Below are positions 2,488 through 43,823 of a stretch of DNA of 63,513 nucleotides, piece after piece. A model generated the notes under the pieces. It ran no database searches, was not told the DNA's origin, and saw only the letters and a program-made list of their open reading frames with translations. Both the position numbers and the translations under genes were made by a program. Origin of the DNA: a virus (lineage: Duplodnaviria > Heunggongvirae > Uroviricota > Caudoviricetes); IMG/VR virus record IMGVR_UViG_2585427777_000008, positions 1 through 63,513 of that record; one strand, given 5' to 3'. Position 1 is the stretch's first letter. Every line of letters begins with the position of its first letter.

Positions 2488-2879
2488 TGTACGAGACTAC
2501 AAAATTAAGCATTCACGAAGTCTCCAATGTGGAGTGGAATATCGTCACCTGTAAGATTGTATCGTGTAATGCTACGCGTACTGATGCAGGCCATAAGAGC
2601 ACGATAACAGGCTACATGGTAATGGCTTATAGGGGATTGAGAGTTCGCTTTATCTGGAAAGCTCGGCAATTGACACCATTCAGAGAGCCGTCAATGCCAT
2701 TAGAGGTAGAACAGGATTATTTAAGCCTGCCGGAAATAGACGGTGCAACGCTGGTGGATTCTGATGGTCGTAAGGCTGATTTTGAAGTCAGCTTAAAGGT
2801 GGCGCAGGCCGTAATTAATAACTCACGTGGTAAGTGGATCGCTAAGGTAAAACACGTCGTTCGCTTATCTCGCTGGTAG
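2487..2879 (+). CDS. hypothetical protein
   Basis: 130-aa ORF translationally coupled to the upstream ORF. Confidence 0.5.
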   Translation: MYETTKLSIHEVSNVEWNIVTCKIVSCNATRTDAGHKSTITGYMVMAYRGLRVRFIWKARQLTPFREPSMPLEVEQDYLSLPEIDGATLVDSDGRKADFEVSLKVAQAVINNSRGKWIAKVKHVVRLSRW

Positions 2880-2909
2880 TGTTAGATGAATGGAATTAAT
2901 TTTCTAATA
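2880..2909. promoter_or_regulatory. operator-like inverted pair TGTTAGA-N16-TCTAATA
   Basis: Member of the dispersed TTCTAACA motif family; sits directly upstream of the 2988 ORF. Confidence 0.4.
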
Positions 2910-2987
2910 TAACCAACTTTTTGCCAGTCTATACAGAAATAACATTCTCATTATCATCCCCTCGGTCATTTCCTGCCTGGGGGATTA

Positions 2988-3380
2988 ATGGAGCATATCA
3001 GCAGCGCAGAAATTGCGGATATCATGATTAGGGCTGACTGCTATCTGACAGTCACCGAAATCACCACTCTAGCTAAAGAAAAATATCCTCACCTTCATGT
3101 TTCACGCGTAAGTGTAACCAACATCATTCGGCATTTTGTGCGGTCAAGCCGAGCTATTTGTGAGCTTGATGATCGTGTTTACCCACGGAAATACTGGTTG
3201 CATGGCCTGAACGGATATCAGTTCAAGGTGCGCGGGCGCACGCCTGAATACGGTAGCTTACTGGTTAAAAACTGTAGCAGGAAATCAGTCGAACAGGCGC
3301 GAAAAGAGCAACGAGAGCTGGTGGACATGGCGAATAAGCTGTGGAATGCCGCCGTTAAAAAGCGTGGTGTTGCTTTATGA
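2988..3380 (+). CDS. hypothetical protein; candidate late-promoter activator by position (Lpa-like)
   Basis: 130-aa ORF immediately upstream of pacA, preceded by an operator-like motif, as for lpa in P1. Assignment is by synteny only. Confidence 0.4.
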   Translation: MEHISSAEIADIMIRADCYLTVTEITTLAKEKYPHLHVSRVSVTNIIRHFVRSSRAICELDDRVYPRKYWLHGLNGYQFKVRGRTPEYGSLLVKNCSRKSVEQARKEQRELVDMANKLWNAAVKKRGVAL

Positions 3381-4741
3381 GTCTGGTTAATTGGGAGGAG
3401 CACCGCGCCCGCTTTATAGCGTTGCGTGAAGAAAAAGGGATCACTGTAAAGGAATACTGTGAGGAGCATGGCCTTAGCTTCAATACAGCCAGAAAGCATC
3501 TCAATATGAAAAAAAATGAGGTGCGGTCGCAGGTAAAGACAACAAAAAAAAGCACCAAATCACCTGAAAAAAAACGGGCGGGAAGAGCAACAAAAAAGCT
3601 GGAAGAGGGTGCAGAAAAAACAAAATTTACAGAAATTGACAATTCGCAGGGTGCAGGTTCTTTCCGAAGTATGCCAAGAAAGAAAACTTCGGATCATGAC
3701 AATAATACCAATAATAACAATGAGATAAAAGAATCTGTCAGGAGATCATGGCGCAAAAAAATGGCAAAAATGACCCCCGCCGAAGATAAATGCGCTTCAA
3801 AAACCGAGGGATCTTCAGCAATGATCCCTGGCGGTGCTGTGCAGCGTGCCACGTTGCCCACTACGAGTGTGGCTCGCGACATGATGAAGAACGGCGCAGA
3901 AGAGCACCTGCGGTTAGCAATTCAAATGGCGCAAGAACGCGCACTTCAGTACCAAAGCATTGTTGATCAGGAGGCCGAACGCCTACAGGCGGAGATAGAC
4001 GCCCTGGGTGATCAGCAGCCAGAAGGAATGCACCCTGGGCAGCGACTGCTCGGTCTAATCAGTGACGCGGCCTACTACATGAACGATTTTATCAGTAGGT
4101 TGGCAGCGATATATCAGTCCGAACAAAAGCTGCGACAGGGTGATGAAAAACTTCGTCAGGGTGCTCGCCAGCAAGCATTCAGAGAGGCCGAGGCCAAAGA
4201 AAAACTCGAATTAGCACGCCTACAGGCCGAACAGCGTGGCAAAGAGATTGAATATCGCATTGGCGCTGACGCACGCGCAGCCAGAGTTATCGCCGCCGCT
4301 ATACGTATGCGTGAGCGCGAGGAGCTGGACGATATCGGTGTTGCTGAATACATCGAGCGTCAGGGTGTCAGTGTTCCGGCTATCCTCGCGGCGCGCGCGG
4401 CGAAAGCTATCACTCTTCTCGAGCCTCCAGTTTCTGACATCAATGATGTTGATGATGAACAGCTGGACAAAGAAGCGAAGGAGTTTGCATCGCTTCAGGC
4501 TAACCATCCGCAATGGCTGGCAGAGCGCCGGGCGGATGTGGCAACCATTGTTGAAGATCTGGGGTGCGGAGATTACGACCACAATGGCGAGCGTAAGGCT
4601 GGGGAATTCGAGGCCAACGACGAAGAGTTGGATATTGACCCTTCGGCTACGGCTGAAATTTACGGTGATTATGATGCATCAGACGCAGGATATGACGCCG
4701 GAGATGATGATATCGCGATAGAACCGCCGGAGGACGACTAA
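3377..4741 (+). CDS. pacA: terminase small subunit PacA-like
   Basis: 454 aa with an N-terminal HTH-like region, central charged coiled region and acidic C-terminal tail; overlaps pacB start (ATGA at 4738-4741). P1 PacA-like architecture. Confidence 0.7.
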   Translation: MSLVNWEEHRARFIALREEKGITVKEYCEEHGLSFNTARKHLNMKKNEVRSQVKTTKKSTKSPEKKRAGRATKKLEEGAEKTKFTEIDNSQGAGSFRSMPRKKTSDHDNNTNNNNEIKESVRRSWRKKMAKMTPAEDKCASKTEGSSAMIPGGAVQRATLPTTSVARDMMKNGAEEHLRLAIQMAQERALQYQSIVDQEAERLQAEIDALGDQQPEGMHPGQRLLGLISDAAYYMNDFISRLAAIYQSEQKLRQGDEKLRQGARQQAFREAEAKEKLELARLQAEQRGKEIEYRIGADARAARVIAAAIRMREREELDDIGVAEYIERQGVSVPAILAARAAKAITLLEPPVSDINDVDDEQLDKEAKEFASLQANHPQWLAERRADVATIVEDLGCGDYDHNGERKAGEFEANDEELDIDPSATAEIYGDYDASDAGYDAGDDDIAIEPPEDD

Positions 4742-6320: not shown

Positions 6321-7358
6321 TTACCAGAGTTTAGCGGCGTGCTGTGTTTGGGAGAAAGTGAACCCGTAACGTTCTTCTATGGTTTTACCGTATCTTTTCC
6401 GCGCGTCTGTCAGTTTTATGCCTGTCAGGTCATCTCCGGATGTCATCATTACGTCTAACAACTCCAGATCCATTTTATTCAGTCTCGCCATCGCTTCGCG
6501 TGCTGTCTGTATTTTACGCTCAATGATATGGCGAATAGCCGGATCGGCTTCCTCAAGCATTTTGGCTGATTTGTTCTTTAAGCTCTCATTGCGGATGTCG
6601 ATGTTTCGCAAGATGTATGACTTCGCAACATAGCTTGGTTGGTGTTTCTCCAGATCGCGAACGCGATAGAGACTAAAGTCACCAAGCAGGCCGCAAGGTA
6701 TCGACTCAACCCCAGAATAAATAGTAATGCTGCGACGTTCGCCGACATTATTAACAACGGGCACTGTGGTGTTCGGAAGTTTTGCGAACACTAAGGCTCC
6801 GTGTGCGCCTACCCTGAATCGTGACAGAGCATTGCTGCCTTCAATGTTTGTTGTAAGCACTACATCTGTGTATCCATCTTTGCGCGCCCGGTAAACTTCC
6901 CCTTCAGGTTCTGATGCGAAAAAACGGCGCTCTTCTTCAAGTGCACCAACAATCTGCGAAAATATCTTGTTTTTCAGGCTTTTCTTTATAATTGCATCAT
7001 ATTTTTTGAGCAGATTTTCGCGCGTAAATGAGCGGGTGGTGGTCGCGCTTTGCACAACAATATGCGTGCTTTGATTTGTGTCCTCGATAATGAATGGGAT
7101 CGGAGAATATACAGACTCAACAATGTTAGACGCTTTGCCGTCAGCGTTACGGCACAAGTCAACAAAGGCTTTCCATTCTGTGAGGCACTTTTCAGCTTCT
7201 TCTAGCACATTCTGATCATGTGTTAGTGCAACATGGCGGAATTCCTCGCCGGCATAACTGGTATCATGGAAAACAGAGTTTGCGACCACCAGCTCTTTCC
7301 ACCGTGCAGCGGTTTGCAGGAACCGTTTGTACTCTTTCTCGATCGACTTCTTACTCAT
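6321..7358 (-). CDS. putative C1-like immunity repressor (assignment by position)
   Basis: 345-aa ORF between pacB and the rox site, transcribed away from rox as c1 is in P1; operator-like motifs lie in its upstream region. No motif-level confirmation. Confidence 0.4.
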   Translation of the reverse strand: MSKKSIEKEYKRFLQTAARWKELVVANSVFHDTSYAGEEFRHVALTHDQNVLEEAEKCLTEWKAFVDLCRNADGKASNIVESVYSPIPFIIEDTNQSTHIVVQSATTTRSFTRENLLKKYDAIIKKSLKNKIFSQIVGALEEERRFFASEPEGEVYRARKDGYTDVVLTTNIEGSNALSRFRVGAHGALVFAKLPNTTVPVVNNVGERRSITIYSGVESIPCGLLGDFSLYRVRDLEKHQPSYVAKSYILRNIDIRNESLKNKSAKMLEEADPAIRHIIERKIQTAREAMARLNKMDLELLDVMMTSGDDLTGIKLTDARKRYGKTIEERYGFTFSQTQHAAKLW

Positions 7359-7376
7359 TATTCCTACTCGATTTAG

Positions 7377-7386
7377 TTTTCTAACA
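7377..7386. promoter_or_regulatory. operator-like motif TTTTCTAACA
   Basis: 19 bp upstream of the c1-like start codon; dispersed motif family. Confidence 0.4.
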
Positions 7387-7461
7387 TAAAATTACTATGA
7401 CAAATCTATGCCGAATAACAGGGTGAGTAAAGGATCAAGATGTGTTTTTTTATCATCAAAT

Positions 7462-8772: not shown

Positions 8773-8778
8773 ATTAAA

Positions 8779-8788
8779 TTTCTAACAC
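8779..8788. promoter_or_regulatory. operator-like motif TTTCTAACAC
   Basis: Immediately after the dre stop and upstream of the 8846 ORF. Confidence 0.35.
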
Positions 8789-8845
8789 ATCTTTTTAGAT
8801 TAACGCCTTTGCTGTAAAGTACCCTCGCCTATTTAGGAGGGTGCT

Positions 8846-19931: not shown

Positions 19932-19973
19932 AATGCATACCGACTCTGTTTTGTTCCGAGTGGTAAAATAATA

Positions 19974-20003
19974 TGTTAGAAAACTAAAATCAATGTTCTA
20001 ACG
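19974..20003. promoter_or_regulatory. operator-like inverted pair TGTTAGAAAA-N12-TTCTAACG
   Basis: Lies between the phosphatase stop and the start of the 18936..19931 gene, at the head of the leftward operon. Confidence 0.4.
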
Positions 20004-20028
20004 CATTTTGAGTGCGTAAATGATTTGA

Positions 20029-23226: not shown

Positions 23227-23391
23227 AACATAAGCACTGCGAAAAGCTCAATACCAAGCTCAAGTAGCGCCAACGCCCCGAAAAACAACACATAGAACAG
23301 GCCAATTTCATTCACAGATGGCTGGTGGATCGCACTTAAAGCTATAAGCATCATGTCCTCCAAACAGTTATCAGGAATGATATTAATGTTT

Positions 23392-23423
23392 TGTGTTAGA
23401 AAATCAATTTTGAATATCTAACA
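23392..23423. promoter_or_regulatory. operator-like inverted pair TGTGTTAGAAAA-N13-TCTAACA in a divergent promoter region
   Basis: Between the divergently transcribed 22576..23226 gene and the ref-like gene. Confidence 0.45.
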
Positions 23424-23471: not shown

Positions 23472-24050
23472 ATGCAGAAACAGAGTTATTGGGAGAAACA
23501 GAGACAAAAAGCCATGCAAAAATTGGCTGACCCGGCCTGGCGAGAGGAACAAAGGGCAAAGCGCCTTCAACAAGCTCAACGCCAGCAGCAGCGAGCGAGA
23601 GAAAAAGCCGCATCGCCTGAATATCGGCAAAAGAAAATTGAAAAAGCAAAGCAATATGAACAGCGGAGAAAAGATAAAGCTGTATCCGCTCCGTCCAAAA
23701 AAACACGCACGTCACGCGGCCTGAAGGGCAGATCACTCACAGCTGATGAACGCCGGATACAGACCGCTATCGGTACTCTCCCCTGCATTGCCTGCCATAT
23801 TCACGGACAACATAGCCCAGTAGTATCCCTGCACCATATCTTCGGGAGAACGGCAGAGAACGCGCATAAATATGTCCTCCCTTTGTGTAAATGGCACCAC
23901 CAGTACGCAGCGCCAGCCGAGGTCCGAGAACAATATCCCTGGCTGGTCCCTGTTCATGCTGATGGAAAAATAGGCGGAAAAGCAGATTTCATACGGCACA
24001 ATGCCGATGAAATGGCGTTGTATCAGATGGCGATTGAATTGATAAATTAG
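23472..24050 (+). CDS. ref: Ref-like HNH endonuclease (recombination enhancement function-like)
   Basis: 192 aa; highly charged Lys/Arg/Gln-rich N-terminal half and C-terminal HNH-like Cys/His cluster (CIACHIHGQH...CKWHH). Operator-like motif upstream, as for P1 ref. Confidence 0.6.
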   Translation: MQKQSYWEKQRQKAMQKLADPAWREEQRAKRLQQAQRQQQRAREKAASPEYRQKKIEKAKQYEQRRKDKAVSAPSKKTRTSRGLKGRSLTADERRIQTAIGTLPCIACHIHGQHSPVVSLHHIFGRTAENAHKYVLPLCKWHHQYAAPAEVREQYPWLVPVHADGKIGGKADFIRHNADEMALYQMAIELIN

Positions 24051-24060
24051 TTTTCTAACA
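24051..24060. promoter_or_regulatory. operator-like motif TTTTCTAACA at the head of the immI-like region
   Basis: Directly after the ref-like stop, upstream of the candidate immunity RNA region. Confidence 0.4.
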
Positions 24061-24381
24061 TTTTAAGTTGAATTGTAAATTTCTCCGATGTACATTCACT
24101 ACCGATTGGCACACCGGTCAACTTTTTGAGACAAACTATTTAGTTTTTCGTATGATTGCCGCCGCCATACCAATGGCGGTGCAATATAGGTGGCTGAAAA
24201 GCCCCCGTTGACTCACGGTGTTCCAGCCTTTATTGCGCCGCCACCAGACCGTGGAACAGTCGATGGCGGCTCCGAAAGCAAGGAGTCACTACACTATGAA
24301 CAACTACAGTCTTTTCCCATCACTCGTCGTCCACCACTCACGCGATAATCTGCATTCTTTACTCGCGCCGGGGGTGTCAAA

Positions 24382-33082: not shown

Positions 33083-33732
33083 AGCGTAGAGCGCAAATTG
33101 TTGGAACTGTGCACCCGGCAGGGCTTATGCGTGCTCAGGTCCGTGTTTTACCAGACTGGAATGGCGTTCCTGATGACGATCTACCCTGGGCAGAATACCT
33201 GTTACCCATAGGTAACGCGTTTGTACCTACAGTAAAAGGCGACCTGGTATGGGTAGAGTTTCCTTATCTGGATGTTAATGGTCGAATTGATACCAGACGC
33301 CCAATGATAGTTGGCGCAGCTCAGGATGCGCCTGGCGGAGTACCAAACGTCGCGCCGGAGGCGTCAGGCAATGGTAGCGGCTGGACGCCACCAGAAGTAG
33401 ACGGAGCGCCTCCCCGCCCGCAATTTTCGGCGACAAAAGATTTCGTGATTCACCGCAACAATGTGCTCGAAGTGCGAACGGCTGGCGGTGGATATGAAAT
33501 AGCGAATACGGCAGCAGGCTCAAGGATTGGAATGAATGAATCAGGGCAGATATACATCATTGGTCCGGCTGATGTAGTAGTGAATGCGGGAGGGAGTGTT
33601 AACGTCAAATCAGCCGATAACATCAGCGTTAATGGCAAAAACATTACTGTGACAGCCGACGAAAATATTGATTTCAAGGCTGGAGGCACCTTCCAGGCTA
33701 TCGCAAGCAACTTTGATTTCAAGAAGGGATAG
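33079..33732 (+). CDS. baseplate central spike protein, gpV-like
   Basis: 217 aa; N-terminal OB-fold-like pattern (GTVHPAG...RAQVRV...GDLVWVEF) followed by a Gly-rich beta-helix-like tail. Confidence 0.5.
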   Translation: MKRRAQIVGTVHPAGLMRAQVRVLPDWNGVPDDDLPWAEYLLPIGNAFVPTVKGDLVWVEFPYLDVNGRIDTRRPMIVGAAQDAPGGVPNVAPEASGNGSGWTPPEVDGAPPRPQFSATKDFVIHRNNVLEVRTAGGGYEIANTAAGSRIGMNESGQIYIIGPADVVVNAGGSVNVKSADNISVNGKNITVTADENIDFKAGGTFQAIASNFDFKKG

Positions 33733-33746
33733 AAAACACATACAAT

Positions 33747-33780
33747 TGTGTTAGATAATTGAATAGAATTTTCTAACACA
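33747..33780. promoter_or_regulatory. operator-like perfect inverted repeat TGTGTTAGA-N16-TCTAACACA
   Basis: In the 59-bp gap upstream of rdgC. Confidence 0.45.
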
Positions 33781-33791
33781 ATTGGTGAAAC

Positions 33792-34697
33792 ATGAGATCA
33801 GTCGCTTTCAAAAACATCTTCATCTATCGTCTTTCACGTGAAGTTAACTGGAGTGCCGCAGAAGTATCCGATGCTCTTAGCAAATTCGTGTTTACTCCTT
33901 GCGGTTCTCAGGACACAGCTAAAGTCGGTTGGACACCTGTTCTTGGTGACAACCTCACCCATGAATACCAGGGTTTTCTGCTAATACAGCATAAGCGAGA
34001 AGAAAAAATTCTCCCCTCGCAGGTGCTCAAGGAAGAGTTGCAGAAAAAAGTCCTGAAACTCGAAGAAGAGCAAGCCCGCAAGCTGAAGAAAACGGAAAGA
34101 GACAGTCTTAAAGATGAAGTCCTGCATTCACTTTTGCCTCGCGCGTTCACGAGAAAATCACTCGCCAAAATCCTGATCGACCGCAGCAACCATCTGGTAT
34201 TCGTTGAGGCAAGCAGCGCCAAAAAGGCAGAGGACCAGCTGGCTTTATTGCGAAAGTCGCTCGGCAGCCTGCCTGTCATTCCATTCACACCACGCGAACC
34301 GCTGGAAATTACAATGACCGAGTGGTTTAAAAGCGGCTTCCCTGCCGGATTTACAGCAGGTGAAGACGCCACATTAAAGGGTCTGCTCGATAATGGTGGT
34401 GCCGTTCGCTGCAACAAAGTTGATCTACAGTCCGACGAGATTATGTCTCACATTGAGGCGGGGAAAGTAGCTACGACCGTTGCAATTAACTGGATGGACC
34501 GTGCGTCGTTCAGAGTCAACGATGATATGAGTATCAAAGCCCTGACATTCTGTGATGATCTCTATGACCAGAACGACGATATCGACCGGGAGGATGTAGC
34601 ACAACGATTTGATGCTGATTTCGTGCTCTTTACGGGCGAATTATCTGCACTGTTTAACGCGCTGGTGGAGGCCATTGGCGGTGAAGCAGAACGATAA
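33792..34697 (+). CDS. rdgC: recombination-associated protein RdgC
   Basis: 301 aa, colinear with enterobacterial RdgC along its whole length ([37 protein letters not shown]-terminal GGEA.R). Confidence 0.85.
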
Positions 34698-35361
34698 TAA
34701 CCGACCGCTTGTTGTGAGTCTTTGTGATTTTACGGGGGCAATGGTTGCCCCCTGGCTGGAATACGGTGTCGATGCCGCTATCGTCGATCCACAGCACTTA
34801 TCGACCAGTGACGAGCGGATGCAATCAGGTGCCGTTCTGACGCGTATTAGTGCGATCATCGATAGCGATGAAGTATACGCTTTTCTCCGTAAGAATTTGC
34901 AGCGCATCGTGTTTCTGGCCGGGTTCCCACCGTGTACTGACCTGGCTGTTTCCGGCGCGCGCTGGTTTTCGGACAAGGCTAATAAAGATCCGGTTTTCCA
35001 GTTCAAAGCAATGCAGGTTGTCTGGCAGTGTTATGACATTGCAAAGATGATCGGTTGTCCGTACATGATTGAAAATCCGGTCAGCAAAATATCGACATTC
35101 TGGCGTAAGCCAGATCACATCTTTCACCCTTACTTCTTCACTGCATATTGTCAGGAAGATAACTACACCAAAAAAACATGCCTCTGGAGCGGCCAGGGCT
35201 TTGTCATGCCTGATGCCCTAATGGACGAATCATTAGGCAAGCCAGATAACAGAATCCATGCCGCGCCACCAGGGCCTGACAGGGCTAATTTCCGAAGTGC
35301 TACTCCACATGGATTCGCAAAGGCAGTTTTCGAAGCGAATAAGGGGGTGCTCTATGAGTAA
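34681..35361 (+). CDS. short C5-cytosine methyltransferase-like protein (atypical)
   Basis: Motif I-like [11 protein letters not shown], motif IV PPC ([12 protein letters not shown]) and ENV-like ENPVS, but only about 227 aa with no evident target-recognition domain. GTG start is uncertain. Confidence 0.45.
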
Positions 35362-36259
35362 ATCTATAGCAAGCATAGCCATAGAAAAACAGGATACGAT
35401 GGCTGAAATTAGCTATATGCGCACCATTCGGACTCCGGATGAATATGAGCGTCCGATATTCAAATGGGTAGGTGGTAAATTCTCAGAATTGCCTACAGTG
35501 CTTGAGCATCTACCACACGGTAAGCGGTTAATAGAACCATTCGTTGGTGGCGGTTCCGTATTTACGAATGCAGGATTTCGCCACAACCTGCTTAATGATA
35601 TTAACGGTGACCTGATTAACTTCTATCAGACATTGCAGCGAGAAGGACATTCGCTCGTCACGCTGTCATATAGTTTTTTCAAAAATTACAACAACGCTGA
35701 CGCTTACCTCGAAGTGCGTGAGGCATTTAACAGAGGAAAATATGACCAGCTACATCATGCTGCCGCATTTTTGTACCTTAATCGTCACTGTTTTAATGGC
35801 GTAACGCGGTACAACCAAAATGGCGAGTTCAACGTGGGGTATGGCAAATACAAAGCGCCCTACTTCCCACATGCAGAGATGGAGGCATTTTTGGCTGATG
35901 ACGTACTCAAAAACACTTCCTTTGTATCAGGAGACTTTGCTAGCGTCATCGAGGCGGCTGGTGAAGACGATGTGATTTTTTGTGATCCGCCGTATGAACC
36001 GCTTCCGGATACAGAGGGATTTACCAGCTATTCAGGAAATAGCTTCCGTTTCGATGAACAAAAACGGCTTGTATCACTGTTGGTGGATGCCCACCAGCGC
36101 GGCGCTAAGGTAGTGATAACAAATAGTGGTGCTCCAAACATCCGTGAGCTATATGAAGGAAACGGGTTTAAAGTACATCATATGGCAGCCAGACGGTCGG
36201 TTTCCTGCAAGGCGTCAACACGTGTAGTTGCTAACGATATAATTGCAATAATGAAGTAA
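35354..36259 (+). CDS. dam: DNA adenine methyltransferase (Dam-like)
   Basis: Start at MSKSIAS (RBS AAGGGGG). Motif I region KWVGGK...EPFVGGGSV and catalytic DPPY. Confidence 0.85.
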   Translation: MSKSIASIAIEKQDTMAEISYMRTIRTPDEYERPIFKWVGGKFSELPTVLEHLPHGKRLIEPFVGGGSVFTNAGFRHNLLNDINGDLINFYQTLQREGHSLVTLSYSFFKNYNNADAYLEVREAFNRGKYDQLHHAAAFLYLNRHCFNGVTRYNQNGEFNVGYGKYKAPYFPHAEMEAFLADDVLKNTSFVSGDFASVIEAAGEDDVIFCDPPYEPLPDTEGFTSYSGNSFRFDEQKRLVSLLVDAHQRGAKVVITNSGAPNIRELYEGNGFKVHHMAARRSVSCKASTRVVANDIIAIMK

Positions 36260-36307
36260 AAAACGCCGCAGTAGCGGCGTTTACTTTTTCATGTGGCGAA
36301 ATACCTA

Positions 36308-37969
36308 TTAACCTAACTTCGCCCAGGTATCACGCAGCCCAACGGTGCGGTTAAATACCGGTTTTTCCGCCGTAGAATGGCGGCTGTCGAGGCAGAAATA
36401 ACCTTCACGCTCAAACTGGAATGCTTTACCCGCTACCGCTTCTTTCAGCGACGGTTCAGCAAAGCCTTGTTTGATCACCAGCGATTCCGGGTTAATCACC
36501 GACAGGAAATCATCCGCAGCACCTGGGTTCGGCACGTTGAACAGACGATCGTACAGGCGGATTTCAACCGGCAGCGCATGTGCCGCGCTCACCCAGTGAA
36601 TAACGCCTTTCACTTTACGACCATCTGCCGGATCTTTGCTTAAGGTGTCGGCGTCATAAGTACAGAAGATGGTGGTGATATTACCTTCGGCATCTTTCTC
36701 CACGCGTTCAGCCTTAATGACGTAAGCATTACGCAGACGCACTTCTTTACCCAGCACCAGACGTTTGTACTGCTTGTTAGCTTCTTCTCGGAAATCGGCG
36801 CGGTCGATCCAAATCTCACCGCTAAACGGCACCTGACGGCTACCCATTTCCGGTTTGTTTGGATGGTTCGGCATGGTGACCATTTCGCCTTCGCCCTGGT
36901 AGTTTTCGATAACCAGTTTCACCGGATCGATAACCGCCATTGCGCGCGGGGCATTTTCGTTGAGATCTTCACGGATGCAGGATTCCAGCGACGCCATCTC
37001 AATGGTGTTGTCCTGCTTGGTCACGCCGATGCGTTTGCAGAACTCACGAATAGAAGCCGCAGTGTAACCACGACGACGCAGACCGGAAATGGTCGGCATA
37101 CGCGGGTCATCCCAGCCTTCAACGTGCTTGTCGGTCACCAGCAGGTTCAGCTTACGCTTGGACATCACAGTGTATTCCAGATTCAGGCGCGAGAATTCGT
37201 ACTGGCGCGGGTGAACAGGAATGGTGATGTTGTCCAGCACCCAGTCGTACAGGCGACGGTTGTCCTGGAACTCAAGCGTACACAGAGAGTGCGTAATACC
37301 TTCCAGCGCATCGCTGATGCAGTGGGTGAAGTCGTACATCGGGTAGATGCACCACTTGTTGCCAGTCTGGTGGTGTTCAGCAAACTTAATGCGGTACAGC
37401 ACCGGATCGCGCATCACGATAAACGGCGACGCCATGTCGATTTTCGCACGCAGGCAGGCTTTACCTTCTTCAAAACCACCGGCACGCATTTTTTCGAACA
37501 GCGCCAGGTTCTCTTCAACGCTGCGATCGCGGTACGGGCTGTTTTTACCCGGCTGCGTCAGGGTGCCGCGGTATTCGCGGATCTGTTCCGGCGTCAGTTC
37601 GTCAACATACGCCAGGCCTTTGTTGATCAGTTCAACAGCATAGGCGTGGAGCTGATCAAAATAATCGGAGGAGTAACGGATGTTGCCAGACCAGTGAAAA
37701 CCTAACCATTCAACGTCGTTTTTAATCGACTCGACGTACTCGATATCTTCTTTTACCGGGTTAGTGTCGTCGAAACGCAGGTTGCACTGGCCTTTATAGT
37801 CCTGGGCGATCCCGAAGTTCAGGCAGATAGATTTCGCATGACCAATATGCAGATAGCCATTTGGTTCCGGCGGGAAACGGGTATGTACTGTGGTGTGCTT
37901 ACCACTGGCCAGATCTTCATCGATGATCTGACGAATGAAGTTAGTCGGGCGGGCTTCTGCCTCACTCAT
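36308..37969 (-). CDS. glnS: glutaminyl-tRNA synthetase
   Basis: 553 aa, full length, with class I signatures HIGH ([12 protein letters not shown]) and VMSKR; colinear with enterobacterial GlnS throughout. Confidence 0.9.
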
Positions 37970-43665: not shown

Positions 43666-43678
43666 AACCGTAATGATT

Positions 43679-43690
43679 TGTGTTAGAAAA
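43679..43690. promoter_or_regulatory. operator-like motif TGTGTTAGAAAA
   Basis: 14 bp upstream of the revised start of the 43273..43665 gene. Confidence 0.4.
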
Positions 43691-43823
43691 TTAAAATTAA
43701 ACCACATAACAACACGTGTGTTAACAGATTTTATTTTACTAATGCTATTGACTAAATCACAAAGTTGGTATTGTTAGCGCGTCAAAAGAACCTTCACGCC
43801 GCGACCGAATTTAGGGCTTAACC

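Follow-up and report, generated by a model that had tools for sequence, protein, structure and literature searches.

An hrdC-methylase operon of a D6-like plasmid prophage, probable counterpart of the P1 uhr-hrdC-dmt operon, with a short C5-methyltransferase-like protein in place of the cytosine domain of Dmt

The IMG/VR record IMGVR_UViG_2585427777_000008 (Caudoviricetes; 63,513 nucleotides (nt), analysed as a whole and referred to here as the window) is a D6-like, P1-family plasmid prophage, mostly collinear with Escherichia phage D6, in reverse orientation. Between positions 33747 and 36259 it encodes an RdgC homologue followed by two methyltransferase-type open reading frames (ORFs), a short one of 226 amino acids (aa) and one of the Dam type. 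We propose, with a probability of about two in three, that this region is the D6-lineage version of the uhr-hrdC-dmt early operon of phage P1, carried on a D6-like plasmid prophage behind a C1-type operator, and that its short C5-methyltransferase-like enzyme is a cassette alternative to the C5 domain of P1 Dmt.

Cassette exchange at the methylase locus

P1 Dmt is a single protein of 754 aa, in which an N-terminal half matching the C5 domain PF00145 (1.6e-35) is followed by a D12 Dam domain. The window holds no such single polypeptide; instead there are two ORFs, the first of which is not a PF00145 protein, and neither BLASTP nor hhalign detected any similarity between this short ORF and the N-terminal half of Dmt. 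Two sibling D6-like plasmids, CP057047.1 and NZ_CP066033.1, have the same flanking genes (gene 5 and glnS), and in these rdgC is followed by a Dmt of 762 aa or 691 aa. DNA homology between the sibling plasmids and the window breaks off at the stop codon of rdgC (34697) and picks up again at 35429, with about 730 bp in the short-ORF form exchanged for about 1,440 bp in the Dmt form and sharp borders on both sides. The 762-aa Dmt shares 85% identity with P1 Dmt, and over its Dam half it matches residues 5-301 of the window Dam at 95% identity. Since the sibling Dam half matches these residues, we take the N-terminal extension of the window Dam to be the old interdomain linker, and residues 1-25 indeed correspond to the linker of P1 Dmt. 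Inside the 3' end of rdgC, the Dmt of CP057047.1 and the short ORF open with identical V-K-Q-N codons; the annotated Dmt of NZ_CP066033.1 starts further downstream.

On these alignments, the short ORF with Dam and the fused Dmt are shown to be alternative cassettes at one locus rather than the products of a frameshift, and the Dam ORF is shown to be the former C-terminal half of a Dmt, linker included. The locus has thus undergone a clean natural exchange behind one shared start codon inside rdgC, yielding either a fused C5 and Dam enzyme or a separate minimal C5-like enzyme and Dam. That either form occupies the one locus argues for selection in favour of expressing a cytosine-type methylase together with an adenine-type one.

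The operon and its closest relatives

The region 33700-36300 shares 96.2% DNA identity with Escherichia phage D6 (MF356679), is 100% identical to the E. coli plasmid NZ_CP047663.1 and is covered to at least 80% by 98 plasmids in PLSDB. Phage D6 has the same three genes, in the same order and with the same overlaps, between gene 5 upstream and glnS downstream; it differs by point differences only, and the short-ORF proteins of the two are 99.6% identical. In the D6 annotation, orf65 is named hrdC/RdgC, orf64 a 'putative DNA-cytosine methylase' and orf63 a 'site-specific DNA-adenine methylase, similar to C-term half of P1 dmt only'. The arrangement of rdgC and methylase genes is therefore already known, the short-ORF family is already catalogued, and the operon itself, a catalogued feature of D6-like phage-plasmids that are common in E. 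coli and Salmonella, matters little. In P1, where the order is Odmt-Pdmt-uhr-hrdC-dmt, a C1 operator likewise precedes an RdgC homologue and cytosine-type and Dam-type methylase functions. Unlike the window, P1 has the extra gene uhr, carries the operon at another map place and encodes both methylase functions in the one fused Dmt, whereas the C5-like protein of the window is separate and unrelated in sequence.

The product of the first gene was identified in the earlier note as a phage-encoded RdgC homologue, and full-length matches to two family models bear this out: Pfam PF04381 (E 5e-103, 344.9 bits against a cutoff of 25, profile positions 3-298 of 298) and NCBIfam NF001462 (PRK00321; 381 bits against a cutoff of 330). 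The equivalog model NF001460 gave 409 bits, under its cutoff of 501, and we therefore regard the protein as a member of the family and not as an orthologue of the host protein. It is 51% identical to P1 HrdC, and the ratio of nonsynonymous to synonymous substitution rates (dN/dS) of its gene is 0.06-0.13. RdgC of E. coli is a ring-shaped dimer that binds DNA and inhibits RecA. By analogy with this protein, the window RdgC may bind DNA and modulate RecA-dependent recombination. In P1, hrdC was non-essential in a CRISPR interference screen, and hrdC and dmt were dispensable in a Dam+ host (PMC10695390).

The second methyltransferase is, as had been suggested, a Dam-type DPPY enzyme, scoring above cutoff against both PF02086 (E 7e-57, 193 bits, cutoff 22) and TIGR00571 (250.6 bits, cutoff 114.85) and containing an S-adenosylmethionine (SAM) motif, EPFVGGGSVF, and the catalytic motif CDPPYEP. 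Its 69% identity to residues 478-753 of P1 Dmt, the Dam half for which the P1 annotation gives GATC, suggests that it too would recognise GATC. In Dam- hosts P1 dmt is reportedly essential, pac cleavage requiring GATC methylation (PMC12707154). We do not carry this role over to the window Dam, because no P1-like GATC cluster was found in pacA (3377-4741), where no 170-bp interval held five or more GATC sites. Across the whole window GATC is neither enriched nor depleted (225 observed, 246 expected).

The short ORF is an intact gene under purifying selection

The best start of the short ORF is the GTG at 34681, which has a GGAGG Shine-Dalgarno sequence 8 nt upstream and gives a protein of 226 aa, not the approximately 227 aa first estimated. 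Both elements lie inside the 3' end of rdgC, and the conserved N-terminal motif SLCDFTG precedes the first in-frame ATG. In a plasmid that is only 74% identical in DNA, for which RefSeq gives a shortened start, the GTG/GGAGG start is kept, as is the 8-nt start/stop overlap with dam, which reads ATGAGTAA in the window and, in different letters, GTGGCTGA in that plasmid. Since the same overlap is present in this divergent plasmid and in the 98 PLSDB plasmids covering the region, the junction at 35354-35361 is not a sequencing artefact, and the frameshift that the earlier note had wished to exclude by re-sequencing is excluded by conservation. Compared with the 74%-identical plasmid, the short ORF has a dN/dS of 0.044, indicating strongly purifying selection. 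For the homologous gene at 1259-1939 of NZ_LR890273.1, the RefSeq start at an internal ATG (206 aa) drops the conserved SLCDYTG, and the GTG with GGAGG inside rdgC is the likelier start.

A family of short C5-methyltransferase-like proteins

The short ORF matches phrog_757, 'DNA methyltransferase', with an E-value of 4.3e-78, its residues 2-224 aligning with positions 8-222 of a profile of 247. The number of scored homologues exceeds 7,900, and among the 120 matches listed none has a precomputed Pfam domain. The family is found in 1,591 phage records, including phages of Escherichia, Klebsiella, Arthrobacter, Flavobacterium and Campylobacter, and comprises 2,621 representatives of 50%-identity clusters (E<=1e-3), mostly of 200-270 aa.

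An AlphaFold2 model of the short ORF (predicted local distance difference test score, pLDDT, 86) has the strand order of a class-I methyltransferase, with FPPC after strand 4 and ENP ending strand 5. The Foldseek ranking agrees, the best structural neighbours of the model being C5 enzymes of PF00145 (M.HhaI, Dcm and DNMT3). We also aligned the family by hhalign with a profile of nine C5 sequences, namely M.HhaI (verified as identical to 10mh_A), the N-terminal half of P1 Dmt and seven phage enzymes. This alignment was significant (E 2e-4 local, 7e-6 global) and brought motifs I, II, III, IV and VI into register, with Cys85 on Cys81 and Glu131 on Glu119 of M.HhaI. Alignments with single sequences, either the N-terminal half of P1 Dmt or M.HhaI, were not significant, although the latter nonetheless had PC and ENx in register. 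Among 98 diverse representatives, taken from the 50%-identity-clustered library and 33-50% identical to the window protein, seven residues do not vary: Asp36 (the SAM ribose position), Cys85, Glu131, Pro133, Lys164, Thr166 and Trp169. At least 90% of the sequences keep Asn132.

The short ORF thus has the class-I fold, the P-C loop of motif IV after strand 4, the E-N-x of motif VI ending strand 5 and the acidic residue ending strand 2 that characterise canonical PF00145 enzymes. It differs from these enzymes in the third residue of motif VI, which is Pro instead of Val; the ENV motif reported earlier is in fact E131-N132-P133. In addition, motifs IX and X are merged into one R-S-x-T-P-x-G-F-A-x-A-V helix, and in place of a target-recognition domain of 80-200 residues there are only about 30 variable residues (172-200) between the motif VIII strand and the RSxTPxGFA helix, a region in which some relatives have a 28-residue insertion. 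The earlier description of a C5-like protein with a PPC motif and no sizeable target-recognition domain therefore stands, now resting on the fold search, the profile-profile alignment and the invariant residues. These results place the short ORF within the C5-methyltransferase fold and superfamily. Taken together with the purifying selection on its gene and an intein set just before the PPC cysteine of one homologue, they describe a probably active C5-methyltransferase-like enzyme under selection.

A broader proposal, which we put forward tentatively and consider doubtful as a whole, is that the 226-aa protein represents a very large, uncurated phage family (at least 2,600 50%-identity clusters, no Pfam model) of minimal C5 methyltransferases that have very short or no sequence specificity, or that take their specificity from a neighbouring adenine methylase. 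Very short or no specificity is proposed because the family has no real target-recognition domain. A precedent for little or no sequence specificity is M.EcoGII, which is likewise a prophage-borne orphan methyltransferase, silent in the lysogen (PMC5778455); it acts on adenine N6 and belongs to an unrelated family, and the non-specificity of the short C5-like enzyme is our hypothesis. If true, relaxed specificity would bear on anti-restriction biology and on tools for methylation footprinting. The family, which spans phages of Actinobacteria and Proteobacteria and has invariant catalytic residues, is missed by standard domain libraries and labelled 'hypothetical' by NCBI.

A literature search for characterised phage C5 methyltransferases that lack a target-recognition domain found none. 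Two candidates were considered and set aside: M.ECPA8_3172P/PNB-2 of a Shiga toxin (Stx) phage, first annotated as an adenine methyltransferase, could not be linked to the short-ORF family, and the 5-methylcytosine methyltransferases of Sinorhizobium phages are proteins of about 700 aa from another family.

Several homologues have unusual architectures. A 548-aa homologue (P0219) carries a Hint/LAGLIDADG intein between the FPP and the catalytic Cys of FPPC, where the Cys would be the intein +1 residue, and a 348-aa homologue (P0173) joins the short methyltransferase to a C-terminal HNH_2 endonuclease domain. A 305-aa call on a 1-kb contig (P0004) matched 98% of the short ORF and yet has an RdgC Pfam match; two frames were probably fused in calling this gene. 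Clustering at 90% identity puts the 226-aa protein together with 301-aa Dam proteins under a representative of 301 aa, which suggests either that chimeric or read-through calls bridge the two or that the cluster is an artefact.

Gene neighbourhood of the short enzyme

We surveyed the neighbours of the short gene at 56 partly de-replicated viral loci. An adenine or N4 methyltransferase lies upstream in about 10-12 of these and downstream in 3-4, the enzymes coming from four families (PF05869, PF01555, PF05063 and PF02086). Other neighbours are nin-region and replication genes (NinB, NinG, SSB, polymerases, primases). The short gene overlaps the neighbouring methyltransferase gene by 4 nt in Arthrobacter and Klebsiella phages, and at its locus in phage ECO1230-10 there is no methyltransferase neighbour. 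We considered an obligate partner as the principal model and rejected it, as some 75% of the viral loci are without a methyltransferase neighbour. The picture drawn by these gene contexts is of an apparently autonomous member of early DNA-metabolism modules, often within a methylase cluster, and not of an obligate subunit.

A natural fusion of 563 aa (P0121; L009:218-1909) was seen on one 2-kb Logan contig only. It joins a short C5-like methyltransferase, of the variant with the 28-residue insertion, to a D12 Dam, with a linker of some 50 residues in between.

A putative C1-type operator upstream of rdgC

The palindrome upstream of rdgC has arms of 18 nt (33743-33760 and 33767-33784), which are complementary at 17 of 18 positions (94%), with a perfect core of 12 nt. 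The inverted repeat described in the earlier note is accordingly real and, by comparison, operator-like, but it is perfect only over the 12-nt core and near-perfect over 18 nt. The exact 12-mer occurs at a single location in the 63.5-kb window. Sites resembling the 16-nt motif ATTGTGTTAGAAAATT are far more frequent than expected, with four observed against 0.03 expected at up to two mismatches and nine against 0.7 at up to three. Once these sites had been assigned to genes by mapping their coordinates to the D6 annotation, dispersed copies were found ahead of c1, lpa, ref and hrdC (Table 1). The P1 annotation places C1 operators at corresponding positions (Oc1ab, Olpa, Oref, Omat and Odmt), Odmt being the positional equivalent of the window palindrome.

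The 17-bp P1 operator consensus, ATTGCTCTAATAAATTT as read from the annotated P1 sites, matches the window sequence ATTGTGTTAGAAAATT(A) at 11 of 17 positions. By this comparison the window motif does not conform to the P1 consensus; it is related to the P1 operator and distinct from it, as expected for a repressor of different specificity. The P1 operator also differs in being monovalent, with a core sequence unlike that of the window. Across five plasmids, down to 74% overall identity, the palindrome core (TGTGTTAGA) is invariant, while its loop and flanks vary. Because copies of the motif recur upstream of c1, lpa, ref and hrdC, where P1 has Oc1, Olpa, Oref and Odmt, we read it as an operator, and the palindrome is most likely a bivalent site for a D6-type C1 repressor. 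The motif thereby provides an operator map of the D6 immunity system that can be put to the test. Further dispersed copies of ATTGTGTTAGAAAATT are present at 8776-8791, 19970-20007 and 43677-43692; copies outside the P1-like set lie downstream of cre, in the ppp-pdcB interval and in the interval from orf52 to the capsid gene.

Operon layout and boundaries

The operon is flanked by the baseplate gene 5 upstream and a phage-borne glnS downstream. Within it, rdgC and the short ORF overlap by 17 nt and the short ORF and dam by 8 nt, and no terminator-like site was found before 36261. From these overlaps and the uninterrupted course of the region, the three genes are predicted to be co-transcribed and translationally coupled. 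A candidate promoter resembling the sigma-70 consensus precedes them, its -10 hexamer falling inside the left half-site of the putative operator, and a predicted intrinsic-terminator-like hairpin at 36261-36282 marks the end of the operon.

Weighing the evidence and the alternatives

A number of observations weigh against our interpretation of the operon. The short ORF had no match to any Pfam or NCBIfam model, PF00145 included, even at E<=10, so that the motif-profile search proposed in the earlier note came back empty and it was the alignment with the nine-sequence profile that reached significance. Searches of PDB sequences with phmmer and with the family hidden Markov model returned chance matches only and no C5 methyltransferase. 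Motif I of the short ORF reads (L/F)-x-D-x-T-G where canonical enzymes have F-x-G-x-G, no QxRxR can be recognised at motif VIII, the equivalent strand reading D-x-Y-T-K-x-T-C-L-W, and the searchable literature yielded no family member with a measured activity. As to control, late tail genes directly precede the operon on its own strand, and no terminator was found between gene 5 and rdgC, so that late transcripts may read through; the match to the promoter consensus is weak (9/12); and both the link of the palindrome to C1 and the start of transcription are predictions. The outer arm positions of the palindrome, moreover, co-vary among plasmids.

It might be argued that the two methylase ORFs are simply a frameshifted or split P1 Dmt, caused by sequencing error or recent pseudogenisation, with the short ORF as the remnant of the C5 domain. 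The resemblance of Dam to the C-terminal part of P1 Dmt, the position of the short ORF at the place of the Dmt N-terminal domain and the existence of one natural fusion of a short methyltransferase to Dam would fit such an origin. We nevertheless find it scarcely credible, given that the short ORF has no detectable similarity to a domain that itself matches PF00145 strongly, that the junction is kept in the 74%-identical plasmid and 98 others, and that the siblings display a clean replacement with sharp borders; alignment to Dmt thus gave no support to the split proposed in the earlier note. It is very unlikely, too, that the short protein is catalytically dead, whether as a relic, a regulator or a decoy. 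A dead protein would account for the missing Pfam and NCBIfam matches, the divergent motifs I and VIII, the essential absence of a target-recognition domain and the NCBI name 'hypothetical protein', but it is hard to reconcile with a dN/dS of 0.044, with Asp36, Cys85 and Glu131 invariant across 98 representatives, with a very large and phage-wide family, or with an intein placed exactly at the catalytic cysteine of one homologue. Inteins typically sit in active sites. The relic suggested in the earlier note finds no support here, whereas the gene anatomy it described, an rdgC-two-methyltransferase operon behind a palindromic operator-like site, is real. We see a slight chance that the short enzyme needs a partner, acting as a subunit with the adjacent Dam or other adenine methylases and borrowing their DNA binding: translational coupling through the 8-nt overlap, the 4-nt overlaps in Arthrobacter and Klebsiella phages, the natural fusion P0121, an adjacent adenine or N4 methyltransferase from one of four families at about a quarter of the 56 loci and the fusion of C5 and Dam domains in P1 Dmt are all compatible with this. 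About three-quarters of the loci have no such neighbour, however, the partners belong to unrelated families, which points to co-location in a 'methylation module' instead of a specific complex, and the fusion comes from a single 2-kb contig. There is also a small chance that the enzyme acts on another substrate or transfers another group, methylating RNA or tRNA cytosine as Dnmt2 does or using another cofactor such as carboxy-SAM, seeing that the activity of the family is a prediction and that its would-be target-recognising region is minimal. The genomic context of DNA-metabolism and DNA-methylase modules speaks against this, as do the replacement of a canonical DNA C5-methyltransferase domain by the short gene at the same locus and the lack of an adjacent CmoA-like carboxy-SAM synthase gene in the window.

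For the palindrome, we allow a modest chance that it acts mainly as an RNA or DNA hairpin, affecting mRNA stability, processing or rdgC translation in read-through transcripts from the tail genes. If transcribed from upstream it would form a hairpin with an 18-bp stem (-20.3 kcal/mol, z-score -5.1), and this stem abuts the Shine-Dalgarno sequence of rdgC. When positions 33690-33800 of the window were compared with four plasmids, the outer arms were found as CAAT/ATTG, CATT/AATG and AAAC/GTTT, plus one G-T pair; these compensating changes fit either a constraint on an RNA or DNA hairpin or a concerted change of both operator halves. Given the hairpin at the rdgC Shine-Dalgarno sequence, the co-varying outer positions and the missing terminator after the tail genes, a role at the RNA level has some plausibility. 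By contrast, the motif also occurs singly, outside any palindrome, ahead of c1, ref and other genes, which fits a protein-binding site, and the orthologous position in P1 is taken by a C1 operator; the hairpin and operator roles could also coexist.

Proposed mechanism

Under our preferred reading, that of a D6-lineage early operon behind a C1-type operator, a C1-type repressor bound to the bivalent operator, which overlaps the weak sigma-70 promoter, would keep the operon off in the lysogen. Expression would follow infection or induction and would yield three translationally coupled proteins. The RdgC homologue would then bind DNA and temper RecA-dependent reactions, and the short enzyme, with its Rossmann SAM-binding core, Cys85 in FPPC and Glu131 in ENP, would methylate cytosine at C5, possibly with a very short recognition sequence. 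Dam is expected to methylate GATC, and both methylases would act on replicating and progeny phage or plasmid DNA. The suggestion made in the earlier note that the operon protects incoming DNA is mechanistically weak, because enzymes that are produced only once the DNA has been injected would modify replicating and progeny DNA and not DNA that has newly entered the cell.

Feature coordinates and flanking region

Table 1. Positions of the operon genes, predicted control elements and motif copies in the window
Feature	Position	Strand	Remarks
hrdC (RdgC family, 301 aa)	33792..34697	+	D6 orf65 equivalent; phrog_724
Short C5-methyltransferase-like protein, 226 aa	34681..35361	+	D6 orf64 equivalent; phrog_757
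D12-class Dam DNA adenine methyltransferase, 301 aa	35354..36259	+	D6 orf63 equivalent
Bidirectional intrinsic-terminator-like hairpin	36261..36282	.	9-pair stem, 6 G-C pairs; between dam and convergent glnS
Candidate sigma-70-like promoter, TAGAAA-18 nt-GATAAT	33730..33759	+	9/12 consensus positions; consensus match only
Near-perfect 42-bp palindrome, putative bivalent C1-type operator	33743..33784	.	two inverted copies of ATTGTGTTAGA(T/A)AATT
Single motif copy	7375..7390	-	17-32 nt upstream of c1 (6321-7358, minus strand); P1 counterpart Oc1ab
Two inverted motif copies	2876..2913	.	upstream of lpa homologue (about 2988-3380); P1 counterpart Olpa
Motif copy	23390..23405	+	67-82 nt upstream of ref (23472-24050); P1 counterpart Oref
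Weak motif copy	24049-24064		end of ref; P1-operator-orthologous place

The only result of scanning 33400-36500 against Rfam was a sub-threshold Leu_leader match on the terminator hairpin, which we take to be a chance match. The glnS gene (glutaminyl-tRNA synthetase) is full-length, occupies 36308-37969 on the minus strand and is convergent with dam, with which it shares the terminator at 36261-36282. D6-like plasmid prophages carry this gene as cargo; it has an annotation in D6 and has been discussed previously (PMC6799933).

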